Shown here piece by piece: positions 18,610 through 52,797 of a DNA stretch of 64,000 nucleotides. The DNA is from Obrimoposthia wandeli (taxonomy: Eukaryota): positions 62,001-126,000 of the forward strand of contig CDROCS010003227.1 in the NCBI GenBank assembly GCA_977020255.1. Reading direction: 5' to 3'. The translations under genes and the position numbers were made by a program. Positions within the stretch are counted from its first letter, which is position 1. Each line of letters starts with the position of its first letter. The notes beneath the pieces are model-generated. The model was given only the letters and a program-made list of their open reading frames with translations. It was not told the origin of the DNA and ran no database searches.

Positions 18610-18639
18610 AGGGGGGAGGGGGAGGGGAGAGGGTGAGGG

Positions 18640-27000: not shown

Positions 27001-28520
27001 TATTTTTATAGTTTAAGGTTAAAATCACTTGATAAAATACCACAATAACGTATGTTTACAAATAAATTTATTGTAAACGATAGTAAACTATCAATGACTT
27101 TTTATGTAATGAAATATTAGAGTATTAACTTACAATATATTAAACTGAATATATGTATAAATATATTATTTTTACAAGATCTTTTATTATACAAAACATT
27201 AAAATTATGATTAATAAGTAAACTACTTGAAGTTTTTGTTGTAAATTATAATAAAGTAATAACTTACAACGTATTAAAGTGAATATATGAATAAATATAT
27301 TATGTTTACAAGTAAATTTATAGTAAACGATAGTAAATATCAATTAATTTTATGGTATGGAATATTAAAGTAATAACTTACAACATATTAAATTATGTTT
27401 ACAAGTCAATTTATGATACAAAACATTAAACTTATGATTAATAAGTAAACTACTTGATGTTTTTGTTGAAAATTATATTAAAGTAATAAGTTACAACATA
27501 TTAAAGTTAATATATGCATAAATATATTATGTTTACAAGTCAATTTATAGTAAACGACAGTAAAATATCAATTACTTTTTATGTAATGGAATATTACAGT
27601 AATAATTTACAACGTATTATATGAATATGCACAATAAATTATGTTTACAAGTTAATTTATTGATCAAATCATTAAAATTATGATTATTAAGTAAAGTACT
27701 TGAAGTTGTTTGTTGTAAATTATATTACAGTAATAACTTACAACATATTAAATTGAAAATATACAAAAAATATACTATGTTTACAAGTTAATGTATTGTA
27801 CAAAACATTAATATTATGATTATTAAGTAAACTACATGAAGTTTTTGTAGTAAATTATATTACAGTAATAACTTACAACATTTTAAACTGTATATATGCA
27901 ACAACAAATAAATATTGTAGTTTACAAGTAAATTACTTGAAGTTTTTGTTGTAAATTATATTAAAGTAATAACTTACAATATATTAAATTGAAAATATAC
28001 CAAAATAAATTATGTTTACAAGTCAATTTATTGATCAAATCATTAAACTTATGATTAATAAGTAAACTACTTGAAATTTTTGTTGAAAATTATATTAAAG
28101 TAATAAGTTACAACATATTAAAGTTAATATATGCATAAATATATTATGTTTACAAGTCAATTTATAGTAAACGACAGTAAAATATCAATTACTTTTTATG
28201 TAATGGAATATTACAGTAATAATTTACAACGTATTAAACTAAATATATGCAAAATAAATTATGTTTACAAGTCAATTTATTGTAAACGACAGTAAACTAT
28301 GAATTACTTTTCATGTAATGAAATATTACAGTATTAACTTACAATATATTAAATGAATATGTACAATAAATTATGTTTACAAGTCAATTTATCGTACAAA
28401 TCATTAATATTAAGATTATTAAGTAAATTACTTGAAGTTTAGGTTGTAAATTATATTAAAGTAATAACTTACAACATATTAAAGTGAATATATGCAAAAT
28501 TATAATATTATATTTACAAG
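24020..28520 (-). repeat. Same satellite in reverse orientation (right arm), including a ~1.3-kb duplicated block
   Basis: Reverse-complement monomers; 24054-25380 recurs at 26829-28155 (offset 2775). Confidence 0.9.
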
Positions 28521-31500
28521 TCAATTTTCGAATGTAAACAAAATTAAATAATTCGAAAGAACTTTTACCATTTGAAAGAATACATTTAATAGTACTTTAT
28601 ATTTGAAATTTATATTATATGCAGTCGACGGAATACAGCTACTAACTTTATAATTAAAATATTTTTTATAGTTTAAGGTTAAAATCACTTGATAAAAACC
28701 ACAATAATGTGATAAAGAAATATTATTTAACATATAAAAATGAATTTTTGAAGAAATAAATTGAATATTCATATTATATTAATAAGACAATGGCAAAAAT
28801 ATCAAGTAATTAAAAAAAATAAAATTGTTTGTTGAGTTAATTTACTAAATTTGTATATAAATATATTTTCGAATAGTTAAAAAGAGAAATGAATATTGAT
28901 AATTTCAATTATATTTACGAATATAAATTTATAATCAAGTTATTTAAAAATAAAGAATTTAAATTTATCTAATTATTTAAAATATTTCAATTAAGGAATT
29001 TTAACAAACGAGATAAGACATTTTAATTATTTAATTGCATGAGTATGTATGAAAGGTTAACTTTAATATGGAGGTAAACTATGTGAAAATATGAAAGTTC
29101 GCATCTTAATTATTATAACTTCATCATAACTTACATCATCTTCATTGATTGATAGTATTAATTTAATAATTAGCTAGTACTCACTTGCAGTTTAAGATTC
29201 ACTTGTAAAGATTCTTACTTGTATTTGCATTCATATTTGCATTCACTTACATTCATACTTGCATTCACTTACATTCATTCTAACTCTCATATATTTAAAC
29301 TAACATTCAAATTCATTAATATATTTACTAATTTTCATTCATAATTGACATTCGTACTTGCATATTGCGTATTCTTTCTTACTTGTACTTGACCCTGCAT
29401 TCATACTTGCATTCATTTACATTCAATCTAACTGTAATTTATTCAAACTATCATTCAAATACATTTAAATACATTAATATTTTACTAATTTTCATTCATA
29501 CCTTCAAACTTGGTGTTGTTTTCTATTAATCTAGCCATAACTTAGTCATTCTAATTTTTAACATACTTCAATATCACTGCTTCTTATAGTTGCTTACTTG
29601 TTATTAATTTACTGTAACTTAACATAACTTTATTCATACGAAAACTCTATTTTAATTTACTTATAGTCTAAATTACACTCGCATTCAATCAAACTATCGA
29701 CACTCTTATTTTTAAATTACATTCACTTACTAAGAAACTTACTTGTATTTGCATTCATTTGCATTCATACTTGTATTCATTTACATTCAATCTAACTCTC
29801 ATTTTTTTTTTCAAACTTTCATTCAAATATTCAAATAAATTAATATTTTACTAATTTTCATTCATAGCGTTAAACTTAGTGTTGTTGTTTTATTTACTTT
29901 TTTATTTTTTCTATTAATTCCGTTGTAACTTAGTTGTTAAATCGGAAAGAATGTATAAAGAATGGATTTTCTTACTTTACAAATGCTATTCACTTAAGTT
30001 TGAAGATGATATTATGAAATTACATATTAAATATGTTTAATTTTGTATTATTCTCTGACTTCTTTCTTATTTTATTTTTTTTTATTTTTATATATAATTT
30101 AAGTTATTTAAAGAAATTTTATCATAATTCTATAAATGTATAAGCCTAGGAAAAAAATTTTGATCTAAACTTTCACATAGAATAGTGTGTGTGTTTAAAA
30201 ACCACATTCCTTAACTGATAAGAGTGAACTTTAGCCTTGATTTTCACATAGAATAGTGTGTGTATTATTACGTAATACATTCCTTAACTTTTAAGTGTGA
30301 ACTTTCACATGATCTTAATTATACCTTCAAAGTTTCAAGTCAAAACTGACCTTGACCCTTTGATTTATGGACGACCATAGTGGTATATCAAAGAAGGGTG
30401 GAGACTAGACCACAAAAAAAAAGGGTGGAGACTAGACCACTTGACCCTTTGAATTATGGACGATCATAGTGGTTAGCCAAAAAGAAGGGTGGAGACTAGA
30501 CCACAAAAAGAAGGGTGGAGACTAGATCACAAAAAGAAGGGTGGAGACTAGACCACTTGACCCTTTGAATTATGGACGACCACAACCCTTTAGTGGTTAG
30601 CCAAAAGAAGGGTGGAGACTAGATCACTTGACCCTTTGAATAATGGACGATCATAGTGGTTAGCCAAAAAGAAGGGTGGAGACTAGACCACAAAAAGAAG
30701 GGTGGAGACTAGACCACTTGACCCTTTGAATTATGGACGACCACAACCCTTTAGTGGTTAGCCAAAAGAAGGGTGGAGACTAGATCACTTGACCCCCTCA
30801 CCCTCTCCCCTCCCCCTCCCCCCTCCCCCCTAAAGGGTGTCACACCATAAGGGTATATATTGCCTTACCAGAGGTGAGGCAACATATATCCTTATGGTGT
30901 GGCAAGACATCCTTATGGTGTGACACCCTTTAGGGGGGGGTCAAGTGGTCTAGACTCCATCCTTCTACCTACTATCATGATCCCTTTACCTGTCGTTTTC
31001 AGATAGGACCATTCCTGTTAAGTTTAGAATTTTCTCATGACTATTTTACATTCAAACCTAGGTCTTTATAATTTTAATGTTTCTATATATATACTCCTCC
31101 AAAGGTTTTTTCTAAAAAAATTAATTTTGAATATAATTATTTTTTCTAAATTAGAAAACTAATACGTAATATCACGGCTATGTTATTTATGAACATTTTC
31201 ATTTATATATTTAAAAAACTATTGTTTTTTTTAATAATATTTTAATATAATTATAATACATTGAACATTTTTAAATTCCAATATTTTTTTCTAAACTGTA
31301 AGTATTTCTAATTATTATGAATATAATATATTTATTTCTATATTACAGGAATTTTTTAATGATAAATGAAACCAATTCATATTTACGGGAGTTAAGAAGA
31401 GAATTAAGAGATTACGAAATGATAAGAAGACATTTATAGAAATAATGGATATACCATACAACAGGTGTGTCAATTTAAATTATTACAAACCTAAACTTAA

Positions 31501-32849
31501 AAAGAAAATGACCGGCCCTAAGAAAATGATAGATACACCGAAAAGTCTCGCTATCAAGAGGAGTGTAAGCAAAATGATAGCTAATTGTGAAATAGTTAAA
31601 TAGTTATATGAATAAGAAGTTATGTTTTGAAACAAGTCACAAGGAGTGTGATTCGAGTATGAAGGCCTACTTTAGATAGAAATTCTATCGCGGAATATTC
31701 TTCATATGTCCAGTATCGGAGGAGATCGATTGGTCGAAGTTTGTTGATAAGTATTGACACCATCTTCGGCATTTCCAGCAACGTGGGAAGAATGCCATCT
31801 TCCAGGTGACGCTACATAGCAGTATGTCATATATTGCCCTAGTGCCTGCTTCTCCTGCTGTCATCATATCAACTATGCCTGCCCCATTTCTACAGTTGCT
31901 TCTCCTGCATCTGCCGCTGTAACCATATCTGCTGCCCCCTCTACTGCGCCTCATGATTGAGCTCCTGCCACCACCATTATGCCCGCTGCTATGCTCGTTG
32001 CTGTTCCTATTGCTGTTCCACCAACATCGAGTGTTGGTTCAAATGGAGTTGGTAGGGTTCCCACTAGCGCGCTGATACCAGCATCTACCCGCAAGAGAAG
32101 TGTTATGCTCACTTCAGGTAGCTATGCTGCGAAGTTGCCCAGGGTTGATATCGTTAAGCGAAAGCGTGGTATTCGAGGCATGATTGAGACATCGTCATTA
32201 GATGTTTCTAATGACAAAGTAATTGATTTAGTAGTTCCGAAGTCACTTTTGACTACCTTAGGGGTTGCAGTCATCAAGTTCACGACTTGCAAGGTTCAAT
32301 TGAATTTGCTAATTTTGTTGGGGTTTCTATATGAAACTACTGGATAGATCCTCGGATGGAGGCCCCCAACGTGAGTTCTATAGAAGTAGGGCTTGCAGTT
32401 GTTTGTGGCCTACTTAGATTGTGCTTACCTATCTCATTGTATAATCTGAAGGTTTGTTTTTGTTTGTTGTTGTGGGGATGTATGAAGAGCTGTGTATATC
32501 GTACTGGAAAAATTCCCTTAGTGTGGTGCAGTGTATGGAGTAGTTGGTACTAGTTTGATTCCAAAAGCTTTGTTCAAACAACACTGAATAACTGTAGGAA
32601 ACTTTATTCTCTAAAACACACTAAGTTACGTTTCTAAAAAATGACAACAACTAGTCCTAATTCTCTTCACAAACTTTGCACAAATGGGGATGTTGGAATG
32701 TATCGATCTTAATCGGCTTAATAATTTTAGAGGTCCTGATTCGGTACGCGTTAAATTCTATTTTATAATTTAAAATTCAATGTTGATTAATTTTAAATTC
32801 AATACACGTTAATGTCTTTTTATTTCAAACTTATTATAAAATTCAATAT

Positions 32850-36168: not shown

Positions 36169-37119
36169 CTCGCACTAATCCTCAATGGGTTTATCAATAT
36201 GATACCTTGTTCAATCAATAAACTTTAGATAAACCCATATGCCGATACGTCTATGTAATATACCGCAATTTGAGAGAAACAACCCATATCTCTCAATCAA
36301 CGTATTTACATTCAATAGGTTTTCTAATGTGCAAACGGATAGGGATATCTTTAAAAATCCCTATGTGGATGTAATTTATAGGATCACAAACCCGAACACT
36401 ACGCAAATCAATCTTCTCCTTTTAATAAATGATGATAACTTTCATTATGACGCTATTCCAAAACTCAATGGGATATGTAATTATAGGAACATATGTGTAT
36501 CTAATGACATCCGGTGTACTTGGTGCCATAAGCGTCTCCATGGGTTCCGGAGACCGATAAGTTACGCCAAGTACGTTCCACTCTGTAGGATGAATTTGGA
36601 TCATTAAACACTTTTATTATCATTAACACCACAGAGAAGCATATTGAGTTTAAGGACTTTTTAAAAAATTCTCCGCCGTTTGCTGTTTACGTGTATTTTT
36701 AGGCTCAGCTAGAGCCACAGGGAATTAATCATAAGATCCAGCTTTCAATCTCGACCGGTATGCTTATGCCTCTTGTTGTAGCCATGACAGGATACACACA
36801 TAATTACTCGGTTTTCACAGGAGGATCTTGTGTGGCATTCTTTTTGCAGAAATTAGAGGACATGGTGAAAGAGGTAGTACTCCCATGGTACAGAAATCAT
36901 GCGATCGAGGTAATACTGCCACTTACACTGGAACAGGTATCGAGTTTCAATGCTGCGAGAATCTGCTACTTGTGTAAGAAGAAGCTAGTGAATAAAGTTT
37001 ACTAGCATGATCACATGATGGGAGAGTACCTCGGAACTGATCATTCGAAATGCAACTTATCAAGGAGAGTGAATCGCTCTTTTCCTATCATTTTTCACAA
37101 TTTGATGGGTTATGACATG

Positions 37120-37717
37120 AGTAGGTAGATGTGTGACTTCTGGAACAAAGCCCCCCCCTGAGGACAAAATTTTTTAAGGTCAAGTTGAGGTCACGGTGAG
37201 GTCATGACCTCATGAGGTCAAGTCAAGTTAAGGTCAAGTTAAGGTCAATGTACTTTAAGGTCAACTTAAGGTCATGACGTCATGAGGTCAAGTTAAGGTC
37301 AAGTTAAGGTCATGATGAGGACAATGTACTTTAAGGTCAAGTTAAGGTCATGATGAGGACAATGTACTTTAAGGTCAACTTAAGGTCATGAGGACAACTT
37401 AAGGTCACGGTGAGGTCAAAAATATTCTATTTTTAGTAACATTCTTTAAATCTATATATCTTTTTATCTAAAGACTGTATTAACACCAATTCAACAAAAT
37501 ACATCTAGTGTGTGTGTGTGTTTTATAATTTAAATTAAATTATCTACTTATAAAATAAAGTATTATATAATTTGATAAATTTATTTAAACTAAATTAAAT
37601 TAAACTAAATTAAACTATCTACTTATAAAATAAAGTATTATATAATTTGATAATCATGTTTAAACGTTCCTATATCTATCTAACAAAGACAGTCACGTAC
37701 TGCATCTATATTGCAAA
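37120..37717 (+). repeat. Left TIR (598 bp) with an AGGTCA-based subterminal array
   Basis: Inverted match to 52798-53535. Confidence 0.95.
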
Positions 37718-37757
37718 TACTTGCATCTTTATGTAATCAATAGTAACATTTATTCTT

Positions 37758-37794
<37 letters not shown>

Positions 37795-37835
37795 AGTGTC
37801 TAACAAAGACACTCTGCATCTATATTGCAATGTAA

Positions 37836-38261
37836 TTACAAAGTTTTTGGTTGGTTTGCTAAAAAGTTTAGTTTTGGACCAAGATAGGCACTAGGATCCT
37901 TTTCAAATGCTTTTGTAAGTTTATCTAATTTTACAAAAATATCAAGCATACCATCCCCTTTTTGTATACCATCCCTTTTTTGCACTCGTTTCTGATTTTG
38001 TATACCTTTCAAATAATCCACATTCTTTTTGTGCTTTATAGCTTTTTTATCAACTCCACCAAACCATCTACCTAAAAGATTTGCTGCCATCATATGAATA
38101 CCCAAACCCTCCATGATTTTCTTTTTACTCATAGTCTTTTTACTCATAGTCTTTTTAACCTTAGTCTTTAATGATTTAGTAGGTTTTTTAGTCATTTTCA
38201 TAATAAATATTAAAGTATCACTATTGTTTATATATATATAAAATAATACAAATAAAGACAC
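37836..38261 (-). CDS. Lys-rich basic protein, possible virion core precursor
   Basis: KKTMSKK repeats, a WFGG motif and QKGDG/EGLG glycine motifs reminiscent of adenain cleavage sites. Confidence 0.55.
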   Translation of the reverse strand: MSLFVLFYIYINNSDTLIFIMKMTKKPTKSLKTKVKKTMSKKTMSKKKIMEGLGIHMMAANLLGRWFGGVDKKAIKHKKNVDYLKGIQNQKRVQKRDGIQKGDGMLDIFVKLDKLTKAFEKDPSAYLGPKLNFLANQPKTL

Positions 38262-38270
38262 AAAAATTTA

Positions 38271-38660
38271 TTAGTCAACTCTAACAGCATCAATTATTTT
38301 CCATATCGGAGTTTCCAATCCACTGGGCCCGATCTTGCATCCTTGAATTCTGATTGAGAGAATCCATTCTAGCTTAGGAGGAGGTGCTTCGTATATTGTT
38401 CCATTCTCATGCTTGAAAGTGGCAGTTGATCCTTTGATTACGAATTTGTTTTCCTGAAGCGCATAGTTGATTCCGAATTGAGTCAAGAGAATATTGATTC
38501 TCTCTTTATCCACAGAAGTCAAATTTGATATTTCAAAATCAAATTTAAGCGGCTCGATGTTGACAGGAAAAATAAAATTATAGTTATGAGCTTTCTTCAA
38601 AAAGTGCATCTCATATCCATAATATGTATGCATAGGTTGATATAGCTTTTCGAAATTCAT
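38271..38660 (-). CDS. Hypothetical Polinton protein (129 aa)
   Basis: Clean ATG-initiated ORF with protein-like composition in a gene-dense element. Confidence 0.6.
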   Translation of the reverse strand: MNFEKLYQPMHTYYGYEMHFLKKAHNYNFIFPVNIEPLKFDFEISNLTSVDKERINILLTQFGINYALQENKFVIKGSTATFKHENGTIYEAPPPKLEWILSIRIQGCKIGPSGLETPIWKIIDAVRVD

Positions 38661-38773
38661 ATTGACAATTATAAATTGAAATATTCAATTGTTTATCCTC
38701 CAAAGCTCGATTCTAATTGGTCGATATTCTTGTTTATGAAAATCGATTAGTCTCAATTGGTTAACATTCTTGT

Positions 38774-38998
38774 TTATCGTCTAGTATTAGTCATATCCTT
38801 AAAGGGCTCACGTTCTTCGGTTACGCGCGTAGGATACTGTGGTATTGTTTGACTTGATGGATTAATATTTTCTCTCTGATTATTTCTATTATAATTCATA
38901 TTAGAATATAAATTACTACCAGAACCTATATATGTACTAGCTCTACTTTCATTATTTTGATTATTTTGATTATCCATTTTCAATAAAATCATTATCAA
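38774..38998 (-). CDS. Short Asn/Gln-rich hypothetical ORF
   Basis: ORF track only; low complexity. Confidence 0.3.
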   Translation of the reverse strand: MIMILLKMDNQNNQNNESRASTYIGSGSNLYSNMNYNRNNQRENINPSSQTIPQYPTRVTEEREPFKDMTNTRR

Positions 38999-39129
38999 AA
39001 TATTGTTTATACTAAGACAAAGACATCACATGTCATTACTTGCGAAAAGTTGCAAATAGTTGTAATGTGGTCTAAAAATATATTTTCACTTACTATATAA
39101 GCTAGACAATTTCATCATTCAATTTTGTT

Positions 39130-40131
39130 ATGACTACTAAATTTATTGCACATTATGTTTCAGAAAACGGAGAACTCACCATTAGACGACGGCGTTTTGA
39201 TAATATTTCAAGAATAAATGAAAATATGATATATGAAGAAAGAAGATTAGAATCGTTACAAGCAAAGTTTACTGGTTTAGCCGATAAGAAAGCTTTAGCA
39301 AAAGCAGGATTTTACAAGCACGATGATTCGAAAGATAATGTAAAGTGTATTTACTGTCAGGGAGGAATATCAGGATGGGAGTACTATCTGAAACCAATGA
39401 AACAGCATCAGCTATTTTTCCCAAGATGCCCGTTTGTTTTGAAAATGAATGTTTCAAACGTACCAATAATTGATTCCAGCACCACCCAAATTGATTTTGA
39501 TACAACTCCAATGGATAAAGTAGTTATTGTGCGCAATAATTATTCTAATGATATTGAAATACCTACATTATCGATTTTCGATCATGTATATATTTGGAAT
39601 GATTCTTATCGATGTTGTTTCTGTTGGAAAGCAGTACCCCGACTTGACCTTATTGATACTATGCCCGAAAGAATCTTTCATACTCGAGATTGTAAAGCAT
39701 CTAGTATGGGAATCAAGAACGGATGTATTGTTGAATATCATATTAGTAATGATGAAATTGATGCTCAGATGGAAACTCGTCAAATAGTTTTGCTGAAACG
39801 TGATTACAGTCATGATAGAATCAAAGCCGTTTTAGTTAATAGGTTTAAAACATTCGGTAACAAATATGATTCTATATATGAGTTTATAACGGATTTAAGG
39901 TCTTTAGAAATAAAATCTGAACCAAAACATCGGATAAATTATCTCGAGTACCTCTTACCAAATCCCGAATGTGTTGTTTGCATGAGCGATGCGATTTCCG
40001 TGGCATTTTTACCATGCGGTCACTTAAACACGTGTATTAAATGTTCAGATCGTTTTATTACATGTCCATATTGCAAGACAATTATTATTAGACGAGTAAG
40101 AAATATTAGATTTCATAGCATAGGCAATTAA
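39130..40131 (+). CDS. iap: Inhibitor of apoptosis (BIR + degenerate BIR + RING)
   Basis: BIR: LAKAGFY..DNVKCIYC-x16-H-x6-C with exact spacing. Second BIR-like CCFC..H..C. C-terminal IAP-type RING CVVC-x11-CGH-x3-C-x2-C-x6-CPYC. TACTATATAAGC at 39091. Confidence 0.93.
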   Translation: MTTKFIAHYVSENGELTIRRRRFDNISRINENMIYEERRLESLQAKFTGLADKKALAKAGFYKHDDSKDNVKCIYCQGGISGWEYYLKPMKQHQLFFPRCPFVLKMNVSNVPIIDSSTTQIDFDTTPMDKVVIVRNNYSNDIEIPTLSIFDHVYIWNDSYRCCFCWKAVPRLDLIDTMPERIFHTRDCKASSMGIKNGCIVEYHISNDEIDAQMETRQIVLLKRDYSHDRIKAVLVNRFKTFGNKYDSIYEFITDLRSLEIKSEPKHRINYLEYLLPNPECVVCMSDAISVAFLPCGHLNTCIKCSDRFITCPYCKTIIIRRVRNIRFHSIGN

Positions 40132-40194
40132 GCAAATCTAAAAATAGATGTTCAAATTGTATAAATAGAAGAAATCAGTTTATAATAATCAGAA

Positions 40195-40742
40195 ATGCTA
40201 CTTCACAATATCAAATTAGTGAATATTAATTACAAGGGAATGGTTGTAAGTAACATTCAACACTTACCATTTCGGACTTCGAAGCCTCATCAGTATCGAC
40301 TCAAGTGTGAAGGTTACACTATTATCATTTTCAAATCTGGTAATTTATTTTTACATTTATATATAATTATAATTTAGGTACATGCAGAATAATGGGTTGC
40401 AAAACAGTGCTGGATGAAAGCAGTCTTCCTTTTGATATAAAAATCGAAAGAATCCAATCAATCAGTCTCAGCAGCAATCTAGAAACATCAATAAACCTAA
40501 ACAAGATGAGCAAGAGTATGGGATCAGAAGCTGTTTACGAGCCAGAAATCTTCCCGGGACTTCGATACGTCAAATACAATCCCTTATGCGTGAACATTTT
40601 TGTTAGCGGGAAGATTATGATACTCGGTGTTAAATCTTTAAACTATGAGTATCTGATTGAATGTATTTTGTTTAATATAGATCTTCACACTTGTGTTATT
40701 TATTTCCTAAACCAAATAGTTTTAAAAATAGATTTCTCTTAG
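40195..40742 (+). CDS. Divergent TATA-binding-protein-like protein, two exons (40195-40339, 40378-40742), 169 aa
   Basis: Removing a 38-nt GT-AG intron gives IIIFKSGTCRIMGCK in repeat 1 and VYEPEIFPGLRY..VNIFVSGKIMILGVK in repeat 2, matching the TBP motifs LIFxSGK..TGAK and YEPE.FPGL. Confidence 0.85.
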
Positions 40743-41237
40743 AGACAAAGACATCACATGTCATTACTTGCAAATAGTTGCAAATCGTTGTAATGTTGCA
40801 AAAGTTGTAATGTGGTCTAAAAATAGATTTATCTTAGAGACAAAGACATCACATGTCATTACTTGCAAATAGTTGCAAACGTTGTAATGTTGCAAATAGT
40901 TGTGGTCTAAAAATAGATTTTTCATGGGTTATAAACAATATTTGATTTGCTTTATCATAAAATGGATGAAATTATTGAATGTAAAGAGGTTCAGGATGCA
41001 TTAAAAGATCTTGCTTCAGTTATTCTCAATGCTTTATTAGGAAAAATAATCATGAGTAATATTTATATGTAGTTTATTTAACTCTTTAGGTTACGTCATC
41101 AACTACATTTACATGAGATGTTAAGTACAATGGAAAGGTTGAATAATACTCCAATCAAATCATATGATGAAACTGATGCACCAATGAAATCAAACCTTGT
41201 TTAATATATAAGACTAAATTGACTCGAAATTGATAAA

Positions 41238-42020
41238 ATGGAGAAAATCAATTCAGCACCAGAAGCAACATCATCGCTAGTAACATCATCACTACCAGCA
41301 ATATCATCGCCAACAACATCATCGCCAGCAACATCGCCAGCAACATCATCACCACCAGCAACAACAACAACAGTTATAAGAAGAGAAGAAACTATTGATG
41401 AAGTGACGATAGAAGAAGAAATTATTATAGATCCAATTATTGAAGATGAGAGACGGATAGATTTTTTAAATGCTTTGGCTTTTATGGAACCCACAATAGC
41501 TCATGCTTCGAGTATGGAAATGAACCACTTGACCCATCTTTTTGATAGTTTGTTTAGTGCTAGATTTACTCAACTTAATGTAGAAAAGTTAAACAAAACA
41601 GCGATGAGTGAGATTTTAGTAAATCAATTATATATTGGTAATTATCGAGATGGGTTTGATGAAACTAATCTTTTGAATTCCAATTTCACTCATGTAATCA
41701 ATACATCTATACTTGATAAAATATCTTATAAGAAATTAAAATATACTTCTGTCTTTGTAAACTCAAAATTAGGAGAAACAATAATGAAGTATTATAAACA
41801 GACTAATAATATAATTAAAGAAACTATCGAAAATGGTGGTAAGATTTTAGTATGTGGTCATTATGGTAGTTTACATGCTGCTTGCATTGTTATTGCATTT
41901 TTATCTCATTCGATTGGTGTTACTGCTGCTTCGAATCTTGTTAAAGCTAAACGGACTATTGCTGCTCCTAATGAAGCTATGCTTCATCAAATACGTATTT
42001 TTAATCGTTATCATGTGTAA
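41238..42020 (+). CDS. Ser/Thr/Pro-rich N-terminus plus dual-specificity-phosphatase-like domain, probably catalytically dead
   Basis: MSEILVNQLYIGN, FTHVIN and KRTIAAPNEAMLHQI match the DSP fold; the P-loop reads ILVCGHYGSLHA instead of VHCxxGxSRS. Confidence 0.8.
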   Translation: MEKINSAPEATSSLVTSSLPAISSPTTSSPATSPATSSPPATTTTVIRREETIDEVTIEEEIIIDPIIEDERRIDFLNALAFMEPTIAHASSMEMNHLTHLFDSLFSARFTQLNVEKLNKTAMSEILVNQLYIGNYRDGFDETNLLNSNFTHVINTSILDKISYKKLKYTSVFVNSKLGETIMKYYKQTNNIIKETIENGGKILVCGHYGSLHAACIVIAFLSHSIGVTAASNLVKAKRTIAAPNEAMLHQIRIFNRYHV

Positions 42021-42193
42021 ATTTTATTCGTCTTTATCTTTAATCAGTGTTTTTATTAATCAGTGTCTTTATTAGTCAGTGTCTTTATTAGTCAGTGTTT
42101 TTAGTGTCTTTATTAGTCAGTGTATTTATTAACCAATCAGATTTCAGATGTATAGTATATAATCAGATTACTTTTTACTTCTTCATCATCATT

Positions 42194-42475
42194 ATGTCTA
42201 CTCCAAACTATTTCAAGCAAGATGTTGACAAGGCGGTGAAGAGCTTCATCTCGAAGAATGTCATAGAACCAGATGTCCTGCAACTCATTGATGTCTCAAA
42301 TCTACCCCTGGAGGAGCACGTAAGAAGAATGGTGCACGACAAGGCAGTCAATCTTCTCATTCAGGGATACAATCAGAAGAAACTCGCAAACAAAGAAAAG
42401 AAAAGGAGCTTTTTCTACGAGAAGAGTTTTTTATTGTTTGTTGCTGGATGTTTCGTAATAAAATATTTTAAATAG
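42194..42475 (+). CDS. Small hypothetical protein with a C-terminal hydrophobic anchor
   Basis: MSTPNYFKQ...SFLLFVAGCFVIKYFK; codon style distinct from flanking AT-rich DNA. Confidence 0.55.
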   Translation: MSTPNYFKQDVDKAVKSFISKNVIEPDVLQLIDVSNLPLEEHVRRMVHDKAVNLLIQGYNQKKLANKEKKRSFFYEKSFLLFVAGCFVIKYFK

Positions 42476-42518
42476 TTTTGTCTTATAAACATTATCCCGA
42501 TAATCTAATATTTTTAAT

Positions 42519-43169
42519 ATGAACTTAAAAAATAATTCAGTTTTTCAGATTGTAGGTCCTAGTGGTAGTGGGAAAACACACTTTGTATGTAAATTACTGC
42601 AAAATAATAAATACTTTAGTTTTAAGTTTAATAAAATATACTGGCATCAGGGAGGAGATGGAGAAGCTGGTTTAACCAGTAAAGAGTTTAAGAAAATCAA
42701 AAATATAAAAGTCATTAATGGATTCGATGATAATTGGTCTGAGCGATTACAACGACATGATGTTATTGTTATTGATGATTTATATCAAGAAGCAAATAAA
42801 GAGAGTGATTTCAATAATTTATTCACTAAAATAGCACGACATCGGGAAGTAACTGTTATTTTCATCACACAAAATCTATTTCATCAAGGAGGGAACCATA
42901 GAACTCGTAATTTAAATGTACATTACCTTGTTCTCTTCAAGAATCCACGTGATCAGACGGTTGTTGATTTTGTTTCAAGACAAGCTTACCCGAATAATAG
43001 AAAGTTTTTAATAGATTCATTTCAAGATGCAACTACTATTCCTCATGGATACATTTTTATTGATTTTACTCAAGATTGTCCCGATGACTTTAGAGTTAGA
43101 ACTGATGTATTCAATCCATCGGGAATAACCGTCTATAAACAAACAAAGAAACCAGTTTTGAGAAGATGA
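42519..43169 (+). CDS. A32/FtsK-like DNA packaging ATPase
   Basis: Walker A GPSGSGKT, Walker B VIVIDD, RHREVTVIFITQNLF. Confidence 0.95.
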   Translation: MNLKNNSVFQIVGPSGSGKTHFVCKLLQNNKYFSFKFNKIYWHQGGDGEAGLTSKEFKKIKNIKVINGFDDNWSERLQRHDVIVIDDLYQEANKESDFNNLFTKIARHREVTVIFITQNLFHQGGNHRTRNLNVHYLVLFKNPRDQTVVDFVSRQAYPNNRKFLIDSFQDATTIPHGYIFIDFTQDCPDDFRVRTDVFNPSGITVYKQTKKPVLRR

Positions 43170-43588
43170 ATTTTAAAAAGGAAACTGTTAAACCCGAAGT
43201 TAAAAAATTGATTAAATCAGTTTTAAGTGCAAGGAAAATGGTTGCTCAAAAATCGAAAAGAACTGTTGTTAAGAAATCTAGGAGTATTGCCTATTTCAAT
43301 TCTCTCATGCGTGCACCTGCTATTCGCCGCCCAGCTATTCTTAAATCATTCCCTACTTTTGTAATTGATGATTTACTTAATATGATACAGAAAATAGTTT
43401 CTGGTAAAATAATTGTCAAGGCTAACCTGAATCGGCATAAGAAACCTCTACTTGCTTTGTTTCATGCCAAAACACGAATCGGTAAACGTAAGTTGCTTTA
43501 TAAGAAAAGTGGTGGATTTTTAGGATTTCTCGTACCAATTATTAGCTCAATAGTTGGTGCACTTGCTAGTAGACTAATAAACCGATGA
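43166..43588 (+). CDS. Basic core-like precursor with a C-terminal amphipathic peptide (adenovirus pX-like)
   Basis: Lys/Arg-rich; KKSGG|FLGFLVPIISSIVGALA resembles the GG|(F/I)LP.LIPII motif after an adenain site. Confidence 0.6.
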   Translation: MNFKKETVKPEVKKLIKSVLSARKMVAQKSKRTVVKKSRSIAYFNSLMRAPAIRRPAILKSFPTFVIDDLLNMIQKIVSGKIIVKANLNRHKKPLLALFHAKTRIGKRKLLYKKSGGFLGFLVPIISSIVGALASRLINR

Positions 43589-43685
43589 TTATAAACATAA
43601 ATTCGAATCAATAATATGAATTTATATATGGGATCACTTCCATCTATTCCTAAATTCAATTTAAAAATCAAATCGTCTTGCTGCA

Positions 43686-44713
43686 ATGGAGAAAATATGG
43701 TTCGATCCAAGTCATCCCGTCGGTTACACAGGGGTTTCAAAATTAGCAAAAGAGTCAAAGAAGACAAAGCAGGAAACTCAGGCGTGGTTGAGAAATCAAT
43801 TAGCTTACAGCTTAAACAAACCAATGAGACGTCGGTTTCCAACGAGATCATACAAAACGAGCGGCCCGAATGATTTATGGCAAGCAGATTTGATGGAAAT
43901 GATTCCGTATGCGAGTATTAACGACGGATATCGATATATTTTAACTTGTGTTGATGTCTTTAGCAGATTCGCGCGAGCTATTCCATTAAAGTCCAAGTCT
44001 GGTACTGATGTTTTAACCGCAATGAAGCTTTTGATTAAAGAAATAAAACCAAGAAATTTCCAAACGGATAGTGGAAAGGAGTTTTATAATAAACATGTTG
44101 AAACACTATTGAAAAACATAATATTAATCATTACTCAGTATTTTCCCAATATAAAGCCGCTTTAGTTGAACGTTTTAATCGAACATTGAGAGATCGTTTG
44201 AAAAAGTATTTCACAAAGCAGGGAAATAAGTCCTGGGTTACTGTTTTACCTCAAATAATACATGCATACAATCATAGTGAACACTCATCATTAGACCGAA
44301 AGAGACCCGTTGATGTTACAGATGAGAATGCTATGGAAATTTGGCAACACCGTAACCAAAGTCAAGTTGCGCGGAAACCCAAGTATAAAGTTGGTGATTA
44401 TGTACGTATTTCTCAAATTAGTACTACTCCTTTTATAAAGAATTTCAAAGAGAATTGGAGCGATGAAGTATTTCGTATAACTAAAATTGATAATAAACGT
44501 ATGCCGGTAATGTATTTCATTGAGGATGAAACCAATAATGTAATCACGGGTAAATTTTATCATGAGGAATTACAAGTCTTGCCTGAGAAACCAAATGTAT
44601 ATAGAATCCAAGAAATTTTAGAGACAAAAGGTAGAGGAAAGCATAAACAATATCATGTTAAGTGGCATGGATATACTGAACCTAGTTGGATATTAGCTTC
44701 TCAAATAGAATGA
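43686..44713 (+). pseudogene. int: Retroviral-type DDE integrase with C-terminal chromodomain; one frameshift
   Basis: WQADL, VDVFSRF, QTDSGKEF; restoring one A in the run at 44112-44116 gives KKHNINHYS..VERFNRTL; QYHVKWHGY chromodomain. Confidence 0.93.
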
Positions 44714-45738
44714 ACTCAATGTATGTTGTATTACCAAGTAATGGTTCACCATTAACTCAGCCGAATAATACTGCTAATAGTTTTAGTATTGATTATCAAA
44801 GCTCAATCAATTTACCTGGGCATTGGGAAGCTGCTCTGACGGAATTTTCTTTCAATTACTCTCCTCTATCCATTAAAGGAGGGTCAATTATAGATTATGT
44901 TGTGGAGAAAAGAATAAAAACTGAAGTTGAAGCTGGTGTGAAAATGAAACATGGAGAATTTTTCGTCAAGTATTTAACTCCAATTAATAGTAAATATGTT
45001 ATTTACCTTAGCGGCGAAAATAAAATTTGTATAACTCGCACTACGGGACAAGCTTTCAATTTAGAAATTGATAATAAAAGTTTAGCATTAAGTTACGGTA
45101 TGAAAGAAGCTCCTATTGAAAGTATGTTTTATGAATCGGAATTACCAAATCAAAAATATGATTTACCGACATTAAAGTTAAAGATGCATCATTATCATCA
45201 AGAGGATGTACGTGAGCAGTATGCATTCGAAAATGATTGCTTATTTTCCAATGTTGAAAGTCTTTGTCAATATTTCATGAAAAATATTGATAATATATTT
45301 GAAAGCTTTTATGTTGAAAAGGAGATAATTGAGTTTAAATTGAAACCACATGTAAAAGAAATAAATATGGATAAAAATTTAGCTACAATTATTGGATTCA
45401 ATGAAAACAGTTTTAAAAATCTTAATAAAGTTTTCCGAGCATCTAATCGGGCAAAGCTAAGTAATGCGTATAATCAGATTTATATTTACACAAGTATTAC
45501 TGAACCGATATTTGTGGGTGGAAATAAACTTCCATTAATAAAATCTATTTGGGTTCAACAGGAAAAGCACAAGTATGGAGATATTATACATATCCCAATT
45601 GAAAATCCAATGTATATTCCTGTGAGTTCTTCTTCTATAAACAATATTGAAGTTAACATTCGGGATGATTCAGGAAGATTAATTAAATTTTCATTTGGAG
45701 CTAAAACAAGTTTAACAATACATTTTAGAAAAATATGA
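44710..45738 (+). CDS. Minor capsid protein (penton-like)
   Basis: MYVVLPSN..PNNTANSF..WEAALTE at the N-terminus; IYIYTSITEP..P.YIPV..INNIEVNIRD..TIHFR at the C-terminus. Confidence 0.85.
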   Translation: MNSMYVVLPSNGSPLTQPNNTANSFSIDYQSSINLPGHWEAALTEFSFNYSPLSIKGGSIIDYVVEKRIKTEVEAGVKMKHGEFFVKYLTPINSKYVIYLSGENKICITRTTGQAFNLEIDNKSLALSYGMKEAPIESMFYESELPNQKYDLPTLKLKMHHYHQEDVREQYAFENDCLFSNVESLCQYFMKNIDNIFESFYVEKEIIEFKLKPHVKEINMDKNLATIIGFNENSFKNLNKVFRASNRAKLSNAYNQIYIYTSITEPIFVGGNKLPLIKSIWVQQEKHKYGDIIHIPIENPMYIPVSSSSINNIEVNIRDDSGRLIKFSFGAKTSLTIHFRKI

Positions 45739-46062
45739 TTGATTCAAGTATAATCGATGCGTATAGTAAACCGATGCAAGGAGGTGATTTGCCTTATTTT
45801 GCCGGAAAACAGTATGGATCAGGATGGATGAAGGTTTTTGGTCGCTTTTGCTAATGTTGGATCAAAATACTTGTCTGGTGATGAGAAATTTCTTCCCACA
45901 CTAAAGGATGCAGCCTTGGATCAAGTGAATGAAATTTCACCAAGTCTAGCTGAATTTTTGAAAAAGAAAACTCAAAAGGGAAGTGGTTATAAACGTAAGA
46001 AAACATCTAAAGCATCGGGTATAAACAAACGTTTGAAACTAGGTGGAACAATTTTTAAGTAA
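45735..46062 (+). pseudogene. Small Gly-motif virion protein with a probable 1-nt frameshift near 45845
   Basis: MQGGDLPYFAGKQYGSGW..., continuing in ORF 45838 to QKGSGYKRK..GGTIFK; lies between mCP and MCP. Confidence 0.55.
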
Positions 46063-47291
46063 TGAGTTGTGCTAAAACTGAATTGTGTATATTCGATAAA
46101 CCTATACCTCAGGTTGTGGTTGATAGTGCTAGTTTTGAAGAAATATTTCCGACAAATACGGTTAACGGGACATCTTCTCCGGATTTAGAATTCAATATTA
46201 ATGGATCCAATACTCAATATCTTGATTTGAATGATAGTTTATTTCTCGTTAAATTGAAAGTTACAAAGGAAGGTGGAGGTGATTTGGATGATGGTATGGA
46301 TATCAAATCAGCTAATTACATGTTGCATACTCTTTTCAAGGATGTGATTCTCAGTCTCAATAATGTGAAAGTTGAGGGAAATAATACTAGTTACACCCAT
46401 AAAGCAATGATTGAAACATTGTTGAATTACGGTAATGATACGAAATTGATTAATCTTGATGCAATTGGGTTTGACAATGATGAAAAAAGAAGAATTGCTT
46501 CGATTGCAAAGTCTAAAGTATTGTCACTTTGTGGGAGTCTCCATTTGGATTTCTTTAAGCAACCAAAGTATCTTTTACCCGGTGTAAGTGCACATATTCG
46601 AATGAAGAGAAATCCAGTAGGTTTTAGTGTTGTTTGCGCTGATACTATTAAAACCGCAATTGAGATTACGGAAGCAAAACTGATGGTTCGACGAGTAAAG
46701 GTGGAACCATCTGTACTTGTTGCACATCGAATGGGGTTGGAGAAGCAAAATGCATGTTATCCTATTAGAAAAACTAATCTTGTTTCTCACGCTATCCCTA
46801 CGGGAGCACTATCTTATTACAAGGATCAGATTTTTGGTGATATGCAACTTCCAAACTTTGTTTTAATTGCTTTCCAAAACACGTCTACTTATGGAGGTGA
46901 GTCTAAAAATGAGGTTTCTCAATTTGGACACATGAATGTGAGTTCAATTAAACTTGCACGAAATATTGATTATCAAGAATCTTATACGAATGACTTTGAA
47001 AACGATGATTATGTGTTTTCTTATGTGCAATCTTTAATTAGAAATCTTGGTCATTTGGATAAGGATGCTAATATTGGAATTTCAATGACTGATTTCAAGG
47101 ACAAGTATACACTGTTCACATTTGTTCTCTCTCCTGATTTCGATATTAATCAAGCTCAAATCCCTAAACAGGGAAATTTGAAAGTAGAAATCAAGTTTTC
47201 AAAAGCACTTGAACACCCTACTAATATTATAATCTATGGAGTATTCGATTCTGAGGTTCAAATTACCAAGGGAGGAACAGTACTAGTATAA
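46062..47291 (+). CDS. Major capsid protein (double jelly-roll)
   Basis: MSCAKTELCIF..LEFNING..YLDLNDS and YTLFTFVLSPD..GNLKVEIKFSKAL..IIYGVFD; intact 409 aa. Confidence 0.9.
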   Translation: MSCAKTELCIFDKPIPQVVVDSASFEEIFPTNTVNGTSSPDLEFNINGSNTQYLDLNDSLFLVKLKVTKEGGGDLDDGMDIKSANYMLHTLFKDVILSLNNVKVEGNNTSYTHKAMIETLLNYGNDTKLINLDAIGFDNDEKRRIASIAKSKVLSLCGSLHLDFFKQPKYLLPGVSAHIRMKRNPVGFSVVCADTIKTAIEITEAKLMVRRVKVEPSVLVAHRMGLEKQNACYPIRKTNLVSHAIPTGALSYYKDQIFGDMQLPNFVLIAFQNTSTYGGESKNEVSQFGHMNVSSIKLARNIDYQESYTNDFENDDYVFSYVQSLIRNLGHLDKDANIGISMTDFKDKYTLFTFVLSPDFDINQAQIPKQGNLKVEIKFSKALEHPTNIIIYGVFDSEVQITKGGTVLV

Positions 47292-47322
47292 ACAGAATGA
47301 AAACAATAAAGAAGATATATAA

Positions 47323-47700
47323 ATGAAGTAAGTCAGTTTGAATTTATTAATTAATATATATTCTAGTTCGGACGAGATAACAAAAAGCGGAAGAAAACTA
47401 CTCGGTTCGCGTTTCAATGGAGTCTACAGCCTTGATAACATCCCCTCTTTGACTCGACTAGGTGGATATGTAATCAATACACATTCATCTAATTTGCGTG
47501 GTGAACATTGGATTGCAATACATGTTAAAGAAAATGAAATCTTTGTTTTTGACCCCTTTGGGATATATTACCCTTCTAAATTAGTATCTACAGTACTTTA
47601 TTCTGGAAAGAAAGTACATTTTAGTAAGAAACATTATCAAAATGTTTTAACACAGTCATGTGGACAACTCTGTCTGCTTTGGTTAAAGCATAAACAATAG
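47323..47700 (+). CDS. Adenain-like cysteine protease, two exons (47323-47327, 47367-47700), 112 aa
   Basis: GEHW, FDPFG and Q..TQSCG catalytic motifs; the ATG is supplied by splicing out a 39-nt GTAAGT...TTCTAG intron, giving MNSDEI. Confidence 0.88.
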
Positions 47701-47736
47701 ATATAAACAATATCAAATAAAATTATTGCTATAAAA

Positions 47737-48246
47737 ATGTCTGTTTATTTTATTGATTTTGAAGCTTTTATTGATAATAATACTGAATTTGTAATAAAAG
47801 AACTATGTATAATGGATGTGGATGCAATCTTCTATCCTAAACATTATGTTTTTAAAATGCAACCCATATGGGACATGATGAATAGAAAATCAAGAAAAAT
47901 AAATAGATATCTCATTAAGCATTACCATCGACTAAAACTAGTTGATGGTAATAGTTATTTCAAGATACAAGAAATAACTGAGGAAATAAAACGTTGTTGT
48001 AATGTATCCAAATCAATTTTCTATGTTTTGGATGAAAATAATGGAGCTAAAATAAAGACAATCAATAAATATTTTCCTGAATTTAGAGTGATAAATTACT
48101 CGAAAACATTAAAACAATTAAATCCATCAAATATCAATTGTCCATATATTAAACATGGCGAGCATTGTGCATACAAGAAATGCTTTGCAGCTAGTTTGGA
48201 TTATTTAAATATTAATGAAAATTCAACTACTCACATCTGTCAGTAA
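47737..48246 (+). CDS. DnaQ/DEDD-like exonuclease-fold accessory protein with a C-terminal Cys/His cluster
   Basis: FIDFEAF..FVIKELCI, HY.F, C-terminal CP..HGEHCA..KC. Confidence 0.6.
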   Translation: MSVYFIDFEAFIDNNTEFVIKELCIMDVDAIFYPKHYVFKMQPIWDMMNRKSRKINRYLIKHYHRLKLVDGNSYFKIQEITEEIKRCCNVSKSIFYVLDENNGAKIKTINKYFPEFRVINYSKTLKQLNPSNINCPYIKHGEHCAYKKCFAASLDYLNINENSTTHICQ

Positions 48247-48377
48247 ACTATTCTGTTTTAAATTAATCTGGTTGGTTTAAATAATGAATGAATCTGATTG
48301 GCTTAATACTAGCTCGAAAATAGTATATAAGCAAGCATCAATCAACAAATAATCCCCTATTATAAACGAAATTGAAA

Positions 48378-50856
48378 ATGGTAAGTTTATTGTTATTTTT
48401 TCTGCTAATTTATTTCTTTCTAGAATTGCAATATGAACAAAGAATTATGCTTCGAGGAGAGTCACAAGGAATGTGACGGAAAGATGAAGAGCTACTTTGG
48501 ACAGAAGTTCAACGGACAACAATTATACGTATGTCCAGTATGTCTCTCCGCGGAGGAGATTGATTGGCCGGAGTTTGTGGCGCGTCATCGCGTCCATCTT
48601 CGTCATTTCCAGCAACGTGGCAAGAAGGCCATCTTTCAGAATAGATCTGCTACTATTTCTCGGGTTGCTGGTCCAGTTGTTGCTGCTTCGCCAATTGCTG
48701 CCCCAATTTCTGCTACTGTTCCAGTTACTAGTCCAGTTGCTTCGCCACCATCTGCTGCACCAATGGTTCCAGTTATGCCTCCTCCAGTTGGTATGATCCC
48801 CGCGCCGTTACCAGCATCTACCCGCAAGAGAAGTGTTATGCCCACTTCAGGTAGCTTTGTTGCGAAGTTTTCCAAAGTTAATGCTGTTAAGCGTAAGACT
48901 AGTCTTCGGGGCACGATTGAGACATTGTCATTAGATGTTTCTAATGACAATCTCATCGATTTACAAGTTCCTGTATCCCTTTTGACTAGCTTAAGGGACA
49001 CAGTCAGCAAGTTTGCGACTTGCAAGGTTCAATTCGGGGTGCGTGTTGAATTTTCCAATATTGGAGAAACACGCGCTTGGAAATTTTCCAATAGAGGGCT
49101 CCCCATAGATGAGGGGGTTATAGATGCGGGAGTAGATGGGATCAACAAGAAGATTGAGAATTATTCTCAAAGTAGCAGTAATTGAGTAGTGAACCGCTTC
49201 CTGGAGATTTCGTTTGTTGTGACTAAAACAACGACAATGCACTATTTCCAGGGAAGTAGTTATATACCTACTCCATCTGAGTTAGCACTCTCACATTGCG
49301 TCATCAATGTGCAGAACTCAAACGCTTTTTGCTTCCTTTACAGTATCTTATCTGTACTTTTCCGCGAAGTATTTCGCTCTAATCCTCATCGGGTTAATCA
49401 ATATGATGCCTTTTTGAGTCAATTAGCTTTTGATGAGAATGAGATGCCGATGCGTCTATGTAATATACCGCGATTTGAGAGAAAGAATCCATCTCTCTCA
49501 ATCAACGTATTTACATTCAATAGGTTCTCTAATGTGCAAACAGATGGGGATATCTTCAAAAATCCCTATGTGGATGTCATTTACAGGACCACAAACCCGG
49601 ACGCTAAGCCAATCAATCTTCTCCTTTTAGAAAATAATGATAATTTTCATTATGTCGGTATTCCTAAACTCAATAGGCTGCTTCATTATAGGAACAGAGG
49701 TGTATCTAATCGCATCCAGTGTACTTGGTGCCATAAGTGTCTTCATGGCTTCCGGAGACCAATAAGTTACGCCAAACACGTTCCACTCTGTAGGATGAAT
49801 TTAGATCATACAACGCTTTATTCAATGCCTACAGAGAAGCATATTGAGTTTAAGGACTTTTCAAAAACGATTTCTCCGCCTTTTGCTGTTTACGCGGCTT
49901 TTGAGGCTGTGCTGCCGCCACATGGAATCCACCATCAGATTCAGCTTCCAATCTCGGCCGGTATGCTCATGTCTCCCGTTGCAGCCACGAGAGGGTATAC
50001 ACATGATTACTCGGTCTTTACCGGATAATCTTGTGTGGTATCCTTTTTGCAGAAATTAGAGGACTTGGCGAAAGAGGTTGTACTCCCATGGTACAAAAAG
50101 CATGCGATCGAGGTGATGCGACAACTCACACAGGAACAGGTATCGAGTTTCAATGCAGCAAGAATCTGTTATCTGTGTAAGAAGAAACTCGCAAACAAAG
50201 TTCGAGATCACGATCACATGACTGGCGAATACCTGGGAGCAGCGCATACGAAATGCAACTTATCAAGGAGAATCAATCGATCTTTTCCCGTCATTTTTCA
50301 CAATCTTATGGGTTATGACATGCACCATATATTGAAGCACGCACTATGCAAGTTTCCCGACTGGAATGTATCTGTTATACCTCAATCAACAGAGAAATTC
50401 CAGGCTATGATGGTGTATATTGGAGGAGTCTGTATACGTTTCATCGATTCCCTTCAATTTTTGAACAGCAGCTTAGAAAAACTTGTGGAAAACCTGGGTG
50501 TGACTCCTCTTACACATTCGGTCTTCCCGCAACATCTGGTGAGCGCCAAGGGAATCTTCCCATACGATATGGCAGTATCAGAGACTGCTCTTCGCGCAAT
50601 CACCAGCTTACCGCCAAAGTGGGATGAGAAGATCAAGCCAGCACAATATGAAATGGCGAAGATGGTCTGGACTCAGAGCGGCTGCTCATCGCTCTGGGAC
50701 TATATGCTGGTCTATATGAAGATGGACGTCTACCTTCTAGCAGACGTGTTTACAGCATTCCGGACCAAGGCCATTGCTGACGATGGATTGGAGCCACTCA
50801 ATTTCTTCTCCATCCCTGGTTTGTATTTTACTAATTTTTTCTAATTTTAGACACTA

Positions 50857-50910
<54 letters not shown>

Positions 50911-52698: not shown

Positions 52699-52797
52699 AC
52701 TTTTTATATGTGTTGTACATATTTTTATTCTCCTTTGTGATTTTAAGGAATATATGTGTTTGAAATACTTGTCTTTATTTACATAAATTTGCGGGTT

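Follow-up and report, generated by a model that had tools for sequence, protein, structure and literature searches.

A Polinton-encoded TBP-like protein of Obrimoposthia wandeli as a candidate promoter factor for an element-specific DNA word

Which role could a protein resembling the TATA-binding protein (TBP) play in a Polinton, and which promoters would it serve? These questions are raised by a locus within a 64,000-nucleotide stretch of DNA from Obrimoposthia wandeli (contig CDROCS010003227.1, positions 62,001 to 126,000, forward strand; in the following designated the window), in which a preliminary description based on the letters alone had recognized an intron-split TBP-like gene at positions 40195-40742. 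The gene was taken there for the element's own basal transcription factor, which would either direct Pol II to the TATA promoters of the element or act as a decoy for host TBP partners. The matter bears on the activation of Polinton capsid genes and on whether Polintons are autonomous viruses, and a TBP tied to a defined word would provide a direct test: it comes with a binding site, a list of residues, and two gene classes.

The element and its split TBP-like gene

The TBP-like gene is located in an element with the attributes of Polintons/Mavericks, i.e. inverted ends, a 6-bp duplication, and genes for pPolB, an rve integrase, an ATPase, and a protease. Pfam matches were obtained for the polymerase (DNA_pol_B_2), the integrase (rve), and the ATPase (Pox_A32), and the match of the protease to Peptidase_C5 was just below the cut-off. 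The features, with positions in the window, are the following:

37114 to 37119, plus strand: left copy of the 6-bp target-site duplication GACATG
37120 to 53535, no strand assigned: Polinton/Maverick element of 16,416 bp with AGTAGG...CCTACT ends and inverted terminal repeats of about 660-760 nt
38271 to 38660, minus strand: 129-aa ORF with no assigned family, a frequent neighbour of the TBP-like gene
39130 to 40131, plus strand: IAP (BIR and RING domains by Pfam), with a canonical TATATAAG at 39094
40160 to 40167, plus strand: putative TATA box of canonical sequence, TATAAATA, 35 nt upstream of the ATG of the TBP-like gene
40195 to 40339, plus strand: exon 1 of the TBP-like gene (145 nt, 48 codons plus 1 nt), degenerate N-terminal repeat up to F-x-S
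40340 to 40377, plus strand: putative GT-AG intron of 38 nt, phase 1, GTAATT...TTTAG, inside the Gly codon of F-x-S-G
40378 to 40742, plus strand: exon 2 of the TBP-like gene, end of the N-terminal repeat and whole C-terminal repeat
40962 to 41205, plus strand: short gene (putative model) with a probable GT-AG intron and YATAAAC at 40930
41238 to 42020, plus strand: dual-specificity phosphatase-like gene (Pfam), with a canonical TATATAAG at 41205
42484 to 42490, plus strand: YATAAAC word, 35 nt upstream of the ATPase start
42519 to 43169, plus strand: A32-like packaging ATPase (Pfam Pox_A32)
43166-43588: basic ORF, with YATAAAC upstream at 43134
43686 to 44713, plus strand: rve integrase with chromodomain (Pfam rve), in two pieces in this copy, with YATAAAC at 43590
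44710 to 45738, plus strand: probable minor capsid protein, so labelled from its position and homology to other Polinton contigs
46062 to 47291, plus strand: probable major capsid protein, labelled from position and homology, with YATAAAC at 46020
47323 to 47700, plus strand: adenain-type protease, its first codons followed by a probable short GT-AG intron, with YATAAAC at 47287
47737 to 48246, plus strand: conserved ORF, a frequent neighbour of the TBP-like gene in other elements, with YATAAAC at 47702
48378 to 52786, plus strand: pPolB in several pieces, with a probable intron after the ATG, a canonical TATATAAG at 48324, and TATAAACG at 48361
53536 to 53541, plus strand: right copy of the 6-bp target-site duplication GACATG

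The two capsid candidates have no Pfam match; they are conserved, lie at the expected places, and are 27-57% identical to their counterparts in other contigs. The flanking ORFs 38271 and 47737 are without a known family in the Pfam scan, and the 129-aa ORF had no match in the Atlas.

The 16.4-kb element sits inside the polymerase gene of an older Polinton, fragments of which are present at 31600-32350, 36239-37050, and 53540-53760. At 18440-30973 lies a 12.5-kb element, probably derived from a Polinton and non-autonomous, in which AGTAGG...CCTACT ends and long inverted AT-rich arms are accompanied by the 6-bp duplication ATCATG and no ORF reaches 100 aa. TTGCAAAT/TTGCAAA motifs characterize a repeat, about 70-90 nt long and possibly an enhancer, that is present before the IAP gene (39017) and twice before the 40962 gene (40742 and 40837). 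At least 150 copies of exon 2 with 98-100% identity were found in the 1.35-Gb genome, and on many contigs (e.g. C1109, C1312, C1323, and C1346) TBP-like copies form opposite-strand pairs about 8 kb apart, which suggests head-to-head or fold-back forms of the element.

As read from the sequence, the TBP-like gene extends from the ATG at 40195 to the stop codon at 40742 and, both exons being open in this copy, comprises 48+1+120 = 169 codons, which agrees with the preliminary description in coordinates and protein length. The ORF track presents it as two ORFs, as had been stated there, which measure 60 and 116 aa; the further statement that both are uninformative does not hold for exon 2, which is recognized as TBP by Pfam and PDB searches (see below). 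GT and AG are kept in all 30 top genome copies examined, including the 40195 copy, and the stretch measures 38 nt in 28 of them. In a sister family of the same genome the gene is uninterrupted and encodes 144 aa (five of ten divergent Pfam matches), and it is likewise uninterrupted in 23 of the 29 metagenome loci checked. Of 12 split-gene loci that represent other copies or sister families, 11 have, at the same codon and in the same phase, a GT-AG stretch that measures 36-40 nt and differs in sequence; in six of the 11 its length is not divisible by three. Because of the intronless orthologues and these same-phase introns, the 38-nt stretch is very likely spliced out of the transcript. The introns of host TBP genes measure 47 and 48 nt, and three other genes of the element have probable short introns like that of the TBP-like gene; these GT-AG stretches are located at 41050-41095 (40962 gene), 47323-47370 (protease, recurring at the same place in sister families), and 48378-48430 (pPolB). 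Four read runs (one sample, kind unstated) gave even depth over introns and spacers and are uninformative on splicing, and the 40340-40377 junction is not among the 15 of 180 read joints that were listed, which has no bearing on it either.

Fold, family, and surfaces of the TBP-like protein

Exon 2 matched the Pfam TBP family (PF00352) with an E-value of 7e-13 and 48.6 bits (cut-off 22.9), the match covering the C-terminal repeat only, and in the PDB it matched 35 TBP sequences (best E-value 4e-14). No Pfam match was obtained for exon 1 or for the N-terminal half of the intronless orthologue of the sister family, which is about 50% identical to each exon and whose N-terminus is 54% identical to exon 1. 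The fold evidence comes from the model of this natural orthologue, standing in for the 40195-40742 product: it has a pLDDT of 97.6, contains no helix in the N-terminal repeat, and aligned with TBP over its full length of 144 residues (Z up to 14.1, rmsd 2.3; Foldseek E-value 2e-9). Judged by this model, the 40195-40742 product is a member of the TBP fold family, but its residues (see below) are not those of a canonical TBP. The profile search and structure prediction proposed in the preliminary description thus bore out its assignment, the orthologue being predicted to fold as a TBP saddle. Of the two TBP repeat signatures described there, the C-terminal one is found by Pfam, and the N-terminal one, invisible to Pfam, is recovered by structure alignment and the exon 1 match.

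A search with a natural full-length relative returned 574 clusters at E-values up to 1e-3 and 82 at 1e-10, with canonical TBPs among the weaker matches. In nine of the 28 closest metagenome loci Polinton core genes adjoin the TBP-like gene, in ten others it is accompanied by one of the two ORFs usually found next to it, and nine are short contigs with neither. When contigs were chosen by the ATPase, blind to TBP, a TBP-like gene was present in 6 of 17, and in five of the seven with more than 12 kb of sequence; the 11 contigs scored as lacking it are partial, not complete Polintons. TBP had been described as not belonging to the Polinton core, and in view of these contigs and of a label in a MELD-virus map it is commoner than that wording implies. 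The label, a gene "similar to TATA binding proteins," stands by itself in the legend of Fig. 5 of Starrett 2021 (PMC8502044, of which excerpts were available); it is the one relevant mention in the literature covered on Polinton/Maverick TBP or promoters, namely that outside subscription journals and Repbase. Neither TBP nor TATA was found in one supplementary file of PMC8502044, and a term search of PMC10748475, PMC8097293, and PMC12220804 found no TBP. The presence of a TBP-like gene is less new than first thought, and the new part is the match between TBP variant and DNA word. Scans of viral contigs with TBP, ATPase, and capsid alignments found no relative. A second Polinton group that could serve as TBP-free control was not found in the own genome, where the best matches to a divergent ATPase were 34-38% identical; eight of the ten blocks around these matches carry the TBP-like gene and the other two look deleted or truncated.

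The TBP-like gene is under purifying selection, with exon-2 dN/dS values of 0.09-0.29 in the 15 unsaturated of 24 pairs. In a quick tree of 91 rows (six fragmentary or odd rows were dropped and two skipped for length), the family lies on one side of a branch with 95% support, apart from the host TBP1, TBP2, and TRF2-like rows; three rows there owe their label to a neighbouring gene instead of the motif. The phylogeny that had been suggested against host TBP/TRF thus separates the family from the host genes, and recent capture from host TBP genes is not supported by it. The host genes themselves (L031-L040) comprise a pair of canonical TBP genes arranged head to head on a single contig, a divergent third, and two intronless TRF2-like genes.

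Residues of the DNA face and of the partner surfaces were compared in 52 family rows in yeast TBP numbering, which was checked against published tables and mapped via a canonical TBP. The DNA-intercalating phenylalanines, for which a check had been proposed, are kept in three of four cases: F116, F190, and F207 are present in all 52 rows and F99 in none. Among the base contacts, N69 is kept in 50 rows and T215 in 10, N159 is replaced by S, T, or C in all 52, and T124M occurs in 51; R196 is mostly replaced. Further DNA-face swaps are V71N (47 rows), V122R (50), N159S (46), I194R (45), V203C (44), and L205N (52). With F99, N159, T124, and R196 lost, binding to DNA could be weak or absent. The glutamates of the C-lobe stirrup are retained (E186 in 48 and E188 in 51 of 52 rows); the two stirrup glutamates are TFIIB contacts according to the available part of PMC7221094, whose C.L3.2 and C.L3.4 are E186 and E188 in our own mapping, and an acidic stirrup so conserved would be consistent with use of host TFIIB. 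The regions of N-repeat helices 1 and 2 are reduced to 11 and 16 residues, compared to 20 and 29 in canonical TBP, and the canonical helix 2 patch is missing, no N-repeat helix being present in the orthologue model. The basic patch of N-lobe helix 2 binds TFIIA, Mot1/BTAF1, TAF1, and Brf1/2 (PMC7221094, same excerpt), and its predicted loss may allow escape from Mot1/BTAF1, TAF1, TFIIA, and Brf1.

Promoter words upstream of element genes

The preliminary description had proposed TATATAAGC as binding site. This is a canonical TATA box which precedes the IAP and pPolB genes and whose probable reader is host TBP; it is YATAAAC that goes with the Polinton protein family. In elements with the 40195-type TBP variant (28 metagenome loci, two ATPase-chosen contigs, and the 16.4-kb element), YATAAAC is located about 35 nt upstream of the start codon of 55 of 139 automatically called ORFs, the corresponding counts being 3 of 163 ORFs for the other Polinton-like contigs (18) and 4 of 253 for the other TBP loci (49). 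These counts are not independent, because the YATAAAC elements form one clade, so that the Fisher p-value overstates their independence. The two ATPase-chosen contigs, selected blind to TBP, have the word before 8 of 17 ORFs, a 13-locus subset has it before 41 of 86, and two sets of own-genome blocks including flanks have it before 27 of 144 and 41 of 179, with about 4-5 expected. No YATAAAC site was present in 12 of 27 metagenome loci of the family, mostly short contigs. In an unbiased k-mer scan, ATAAAC was the top word for 8 of 12 sets from the 40195-type family.

Of 17 starts picked by hand within the 16.4-kb element (counted before two of the 17 were reset), nine have ATAAAC at a distance of 15-60 nt upstream, with 0.8-0.9 expected and none of 5000 trials reaching this number under either null. 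Across the whole 64-kb window TATAAAC and TATATAAG are not enriched; position alone is non-random. In total, 46 of 78 upstream ATAAAC sites are 25-48 nt before the ATG, canonical boxes being at -33 to -38, and 30 of the 78 lie within upstream coding sequence, some on conserved codons. ATAAAC precedes the genes for the ATPase, both capsid candidates, and the protease, the basic ORF, the pre-integrase ORF, ORF 47737, and four small ORFs, so that non-structural ORFs also have the word. With corrected starts, a canonical TATA at -33 to -38 and no ATAAAC is present before the IAP, TBP-like, and phosphatase genes and ORF 42194. Genes with YATAAAC are mostly without a canonical box; pPolB has both and one core-protein-like ORF has neither.

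A reading of YATAAAC as poly(A) signal was rejected: the word is anchored to the downstream ATG and scattered relative to upstream stops, its first letter is T or C at 68 of the 78 sites, and AATAAA shows no clustering at this place (3 of 17).

Elements with other TBP variants have other words. The top words of the k-mer scan were (G)TAAGAA in contig L114 and ATGCAA(A) in contig L129, and upstream of ORFs YRTAAGA was found in 7 of 12 cases in the former and ATGCAAA in 5 of 14 in the latter. The L114 TBP carries V203T and L205C (its single-sequence fold, with a poor pLDDT of 46, was left out of the structural argument), and the L129 TBP also has other DNA-face residues. Contig L139, whose protein is 50% identical to that of L114, contains CGTAAGAA twice, and contig L181, with an L114-like ATPase, contains CATAAGAA. 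Clear pairs of variant and word are three in number, two of which rest on one long contig each. No clear word was obtained in four TBP-bearing contigs (L179, L180, L184, and L188); the TBP variants of L179 and L180 are milder, and the Polinton-like contigs L184 (11044-11550) and L188 (4708-5232) hold a further TBP variant with a possible AACTAAARTATA word in three occurrences, too few for a count. The Polinton-like contig L139 (281-619 and 1189-1707) has a homologue of the PC4 co-activator, preceded by a canonical TATA box, next to its TBP variant and an integrase. Contig L101 (1-20270) is large-virus-like, at a guess a mirusvirus, with a family B polymerase, a near-canonical TBP, and TATGACG before 7 of 12 ORFs.

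Proposed mechanism, alternative readings, and known systems

The reading that we favour, and consider fairly probable, is that of a re-specified late-promoter factor, most likely working as a minimal counterpart of herpesvirus vTBP, which would read YATAAAC and make use of host TFIIB and Pol II. Host TBP would transcribe the canonical-TATA genes, the TBP-like gene among them; its product would bind YATAAAC and, by its acidic stirrup, recruit host TFIIB, and Pol II would thereby be directed to the genes for packaging, for the integrase and the protease, and for the capsid-type proteins. YATAAAC genes would then form a late class, following the canonical-TATA genes, and a protein without the N-lobe helix surface would escape host TBP regulators. 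A TFIIB family member was not detected among 20 ORFs of the 16.4-kb element and 32 further proteins, mostly of four related contigs, a scan which a very divergent TFIIB could escape; genome-wide, 11 TFIIB-family matches compare with the at least 150 TBP-like copies. Of the earlier proposal, an intron-split, Polinton-encoded protein of TBP fold and probably a basal factor is supported, and the direction of Pol II to TATATAAGC is not supported.

Alternatively, YATAAAC might be read by a host factor, be it host TBP, for which the word would be a weak TATA variant, or a protein of the Forkhead type (we take ATAAACA to resemble a Forkhead site), with the TBP-like protein as a decoy for host TFIIB or another partner and with motif and variant co-varying by descent alone, as they could in related elements. 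The title of PDB entry 1qn3, wild-type TBP on a C(-25) TATA variant, is in line with a host-read word, and the retention of the TFIIB-contact glutamates alongside the loss of several canonical DNA contacts is what a decoy might show. We nevertheless regard this as unlikely. The DNA-face swaps are near-invariant and not drifting (L205N and V122R above all), and the decoy function already envisaged in the preliminary description is weakened because the N-lobe helices, which provide the surface for most partners, are missing and the DNA face is conserved in a family-specific manner. Moreover, the YGTAAGAA of contig L114 has a G at position 2 and is paired with a TBP carrying V203T and L205C, and wild-type TBP does not bind G at this position, according to the part of PMC1636458 that was available.

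It is less likely still that the TBP-like protein binds its word together with an element-encoded partner, e.g. the 129-aa ORF, in a small viral pre-initiation complex. The 129-aa ORF and ORF 47737 often flank the gene, herpes vTBP requires viral partners, and contig L139 has a PC4 co-activator beside its TBP; against this, these neighbours are without a known family, the 129-aa ORF was not detected in contigs L092 or L176, and the stirrup glutamates are kept, unlike in most viral TBPs that have their own TFIIB. Similarly improbable is a repressor or DNA-bending factor which silences the structural genes of integrated copies or aids replication or packaging. Silencing would help in a genome with so many near-identical copies, and several Pol II regulatory surfaces are lost, but the word stands at TATA spacing in the place of TATA, the genes having it mostly lack a canonical box, and the TFIIB contacts are kept. 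That the 38 nt are a disabling insertion in a pseudogene is very improbable: although this copy has a fragmented integrase and a fragmented polymerase, the 11 same-position, same-phase introns described above, six of them with lengths not divisible by three, the purifying selection on exon 2, the similar short introns in other element genes, and the short host TBP introns speak against it.

A wider proposal, which we regard as possible and just short of probable, is that many Polintons run their own early-to-late nuclear programme by means of a single small protein, a re-specified TBP working with host TFIIB and Pol II, and that the lineages have evolved different, mutually orthogonal TBP/word pairs (YATAAAC, YRTAAGAA, and YATGCAAA), which would amount to a natural code for TATA-box specificity. 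Expression of the virion genes would then require no helper virus. Among viral promoter-specificity systems of this kind, the family would also be the smallest.

With cellular TBP and TRF (PF00352) the Polinton protein shares the two-repeat saddle, F116, F190, P191, F207, N69, and the acidic TFIIB stirrup; it differs by its length of 144-169 aa, the short N-repeat helix regions, the loss of F99, and the polar swaps of the DNA face. The vTBPs of herpesviruses (KSHV ORF24, HCMV UL87, and EBV BcRF1) are likewise viral TBP mimics with a polar DNA face and a non-canonical word, in their case TATT, and use host Pol II; ORF24 has polar swaps at V122, T124, V161, L114, and L205 (PMC12529657, available in part). 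According to the same portion of that paper, ORF24 measures 752 aa, possesses an N-terminal domain for Pol II binding and a C-terminal domain for DNA binding, and works in a multi-protein complex, and its model is reported to be incompatible with TFIIB, whereas the Polinton protein is a bare saddle of 144-169 aa with the TFIIB stirrup kept. Fold matches between the two are weak, with no sign of direct descent; the Polinton word, which stands at TATA spacing, may be a late promoter word like theirs. TBPs of nucleocytoviruses and mirusviruses have in common with the Polinton protein the virus-encoded TBP fold and the loss of N-lobe regulatory signatures; in the excerpt of PMC7221094 these viruses nearly always have their own TFIIB and variable stirrup residues, whereas neither a TFIIB nor an RNA polymerase was detected in the Polinton. 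BFVD fold matches to viral TBP-like proteins had E-values of 1e-8 to 1e-3 at 8-21% identity.

The element agrees with Polintons, Mavericks, and adintoviruses in its inverted ends, 6-bp duplication, pPolB, rve integrase, ATPase, protease, and IAP. Intact vertebrate Mavericks are described as intronless, and TBP is not mentioned for them, in the accessible part of PMC8097293, whereas the 16.4-kb element has at least four probable short introns. Closest to an altered TBP specificity is the yeast mutant TBPm3, in which changes at 194, 203, and 205 re-specify binding to TGTA (PMC1636458, same part): the Polinton family is changed at the same three positions, and the L114 variant combines V203T with a G at position 2 of its word, YATAAAC itself differing from TATA chiefly at position 7. 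Unlike TBPm3, a laboratory mutant with hydrophobic swaps, the Polinton family has R, C, and N at these positions together with a remodelled N-repeat, and it would represent a natural set of altered-specificity TBPs that bears on how TBP reads DNA.
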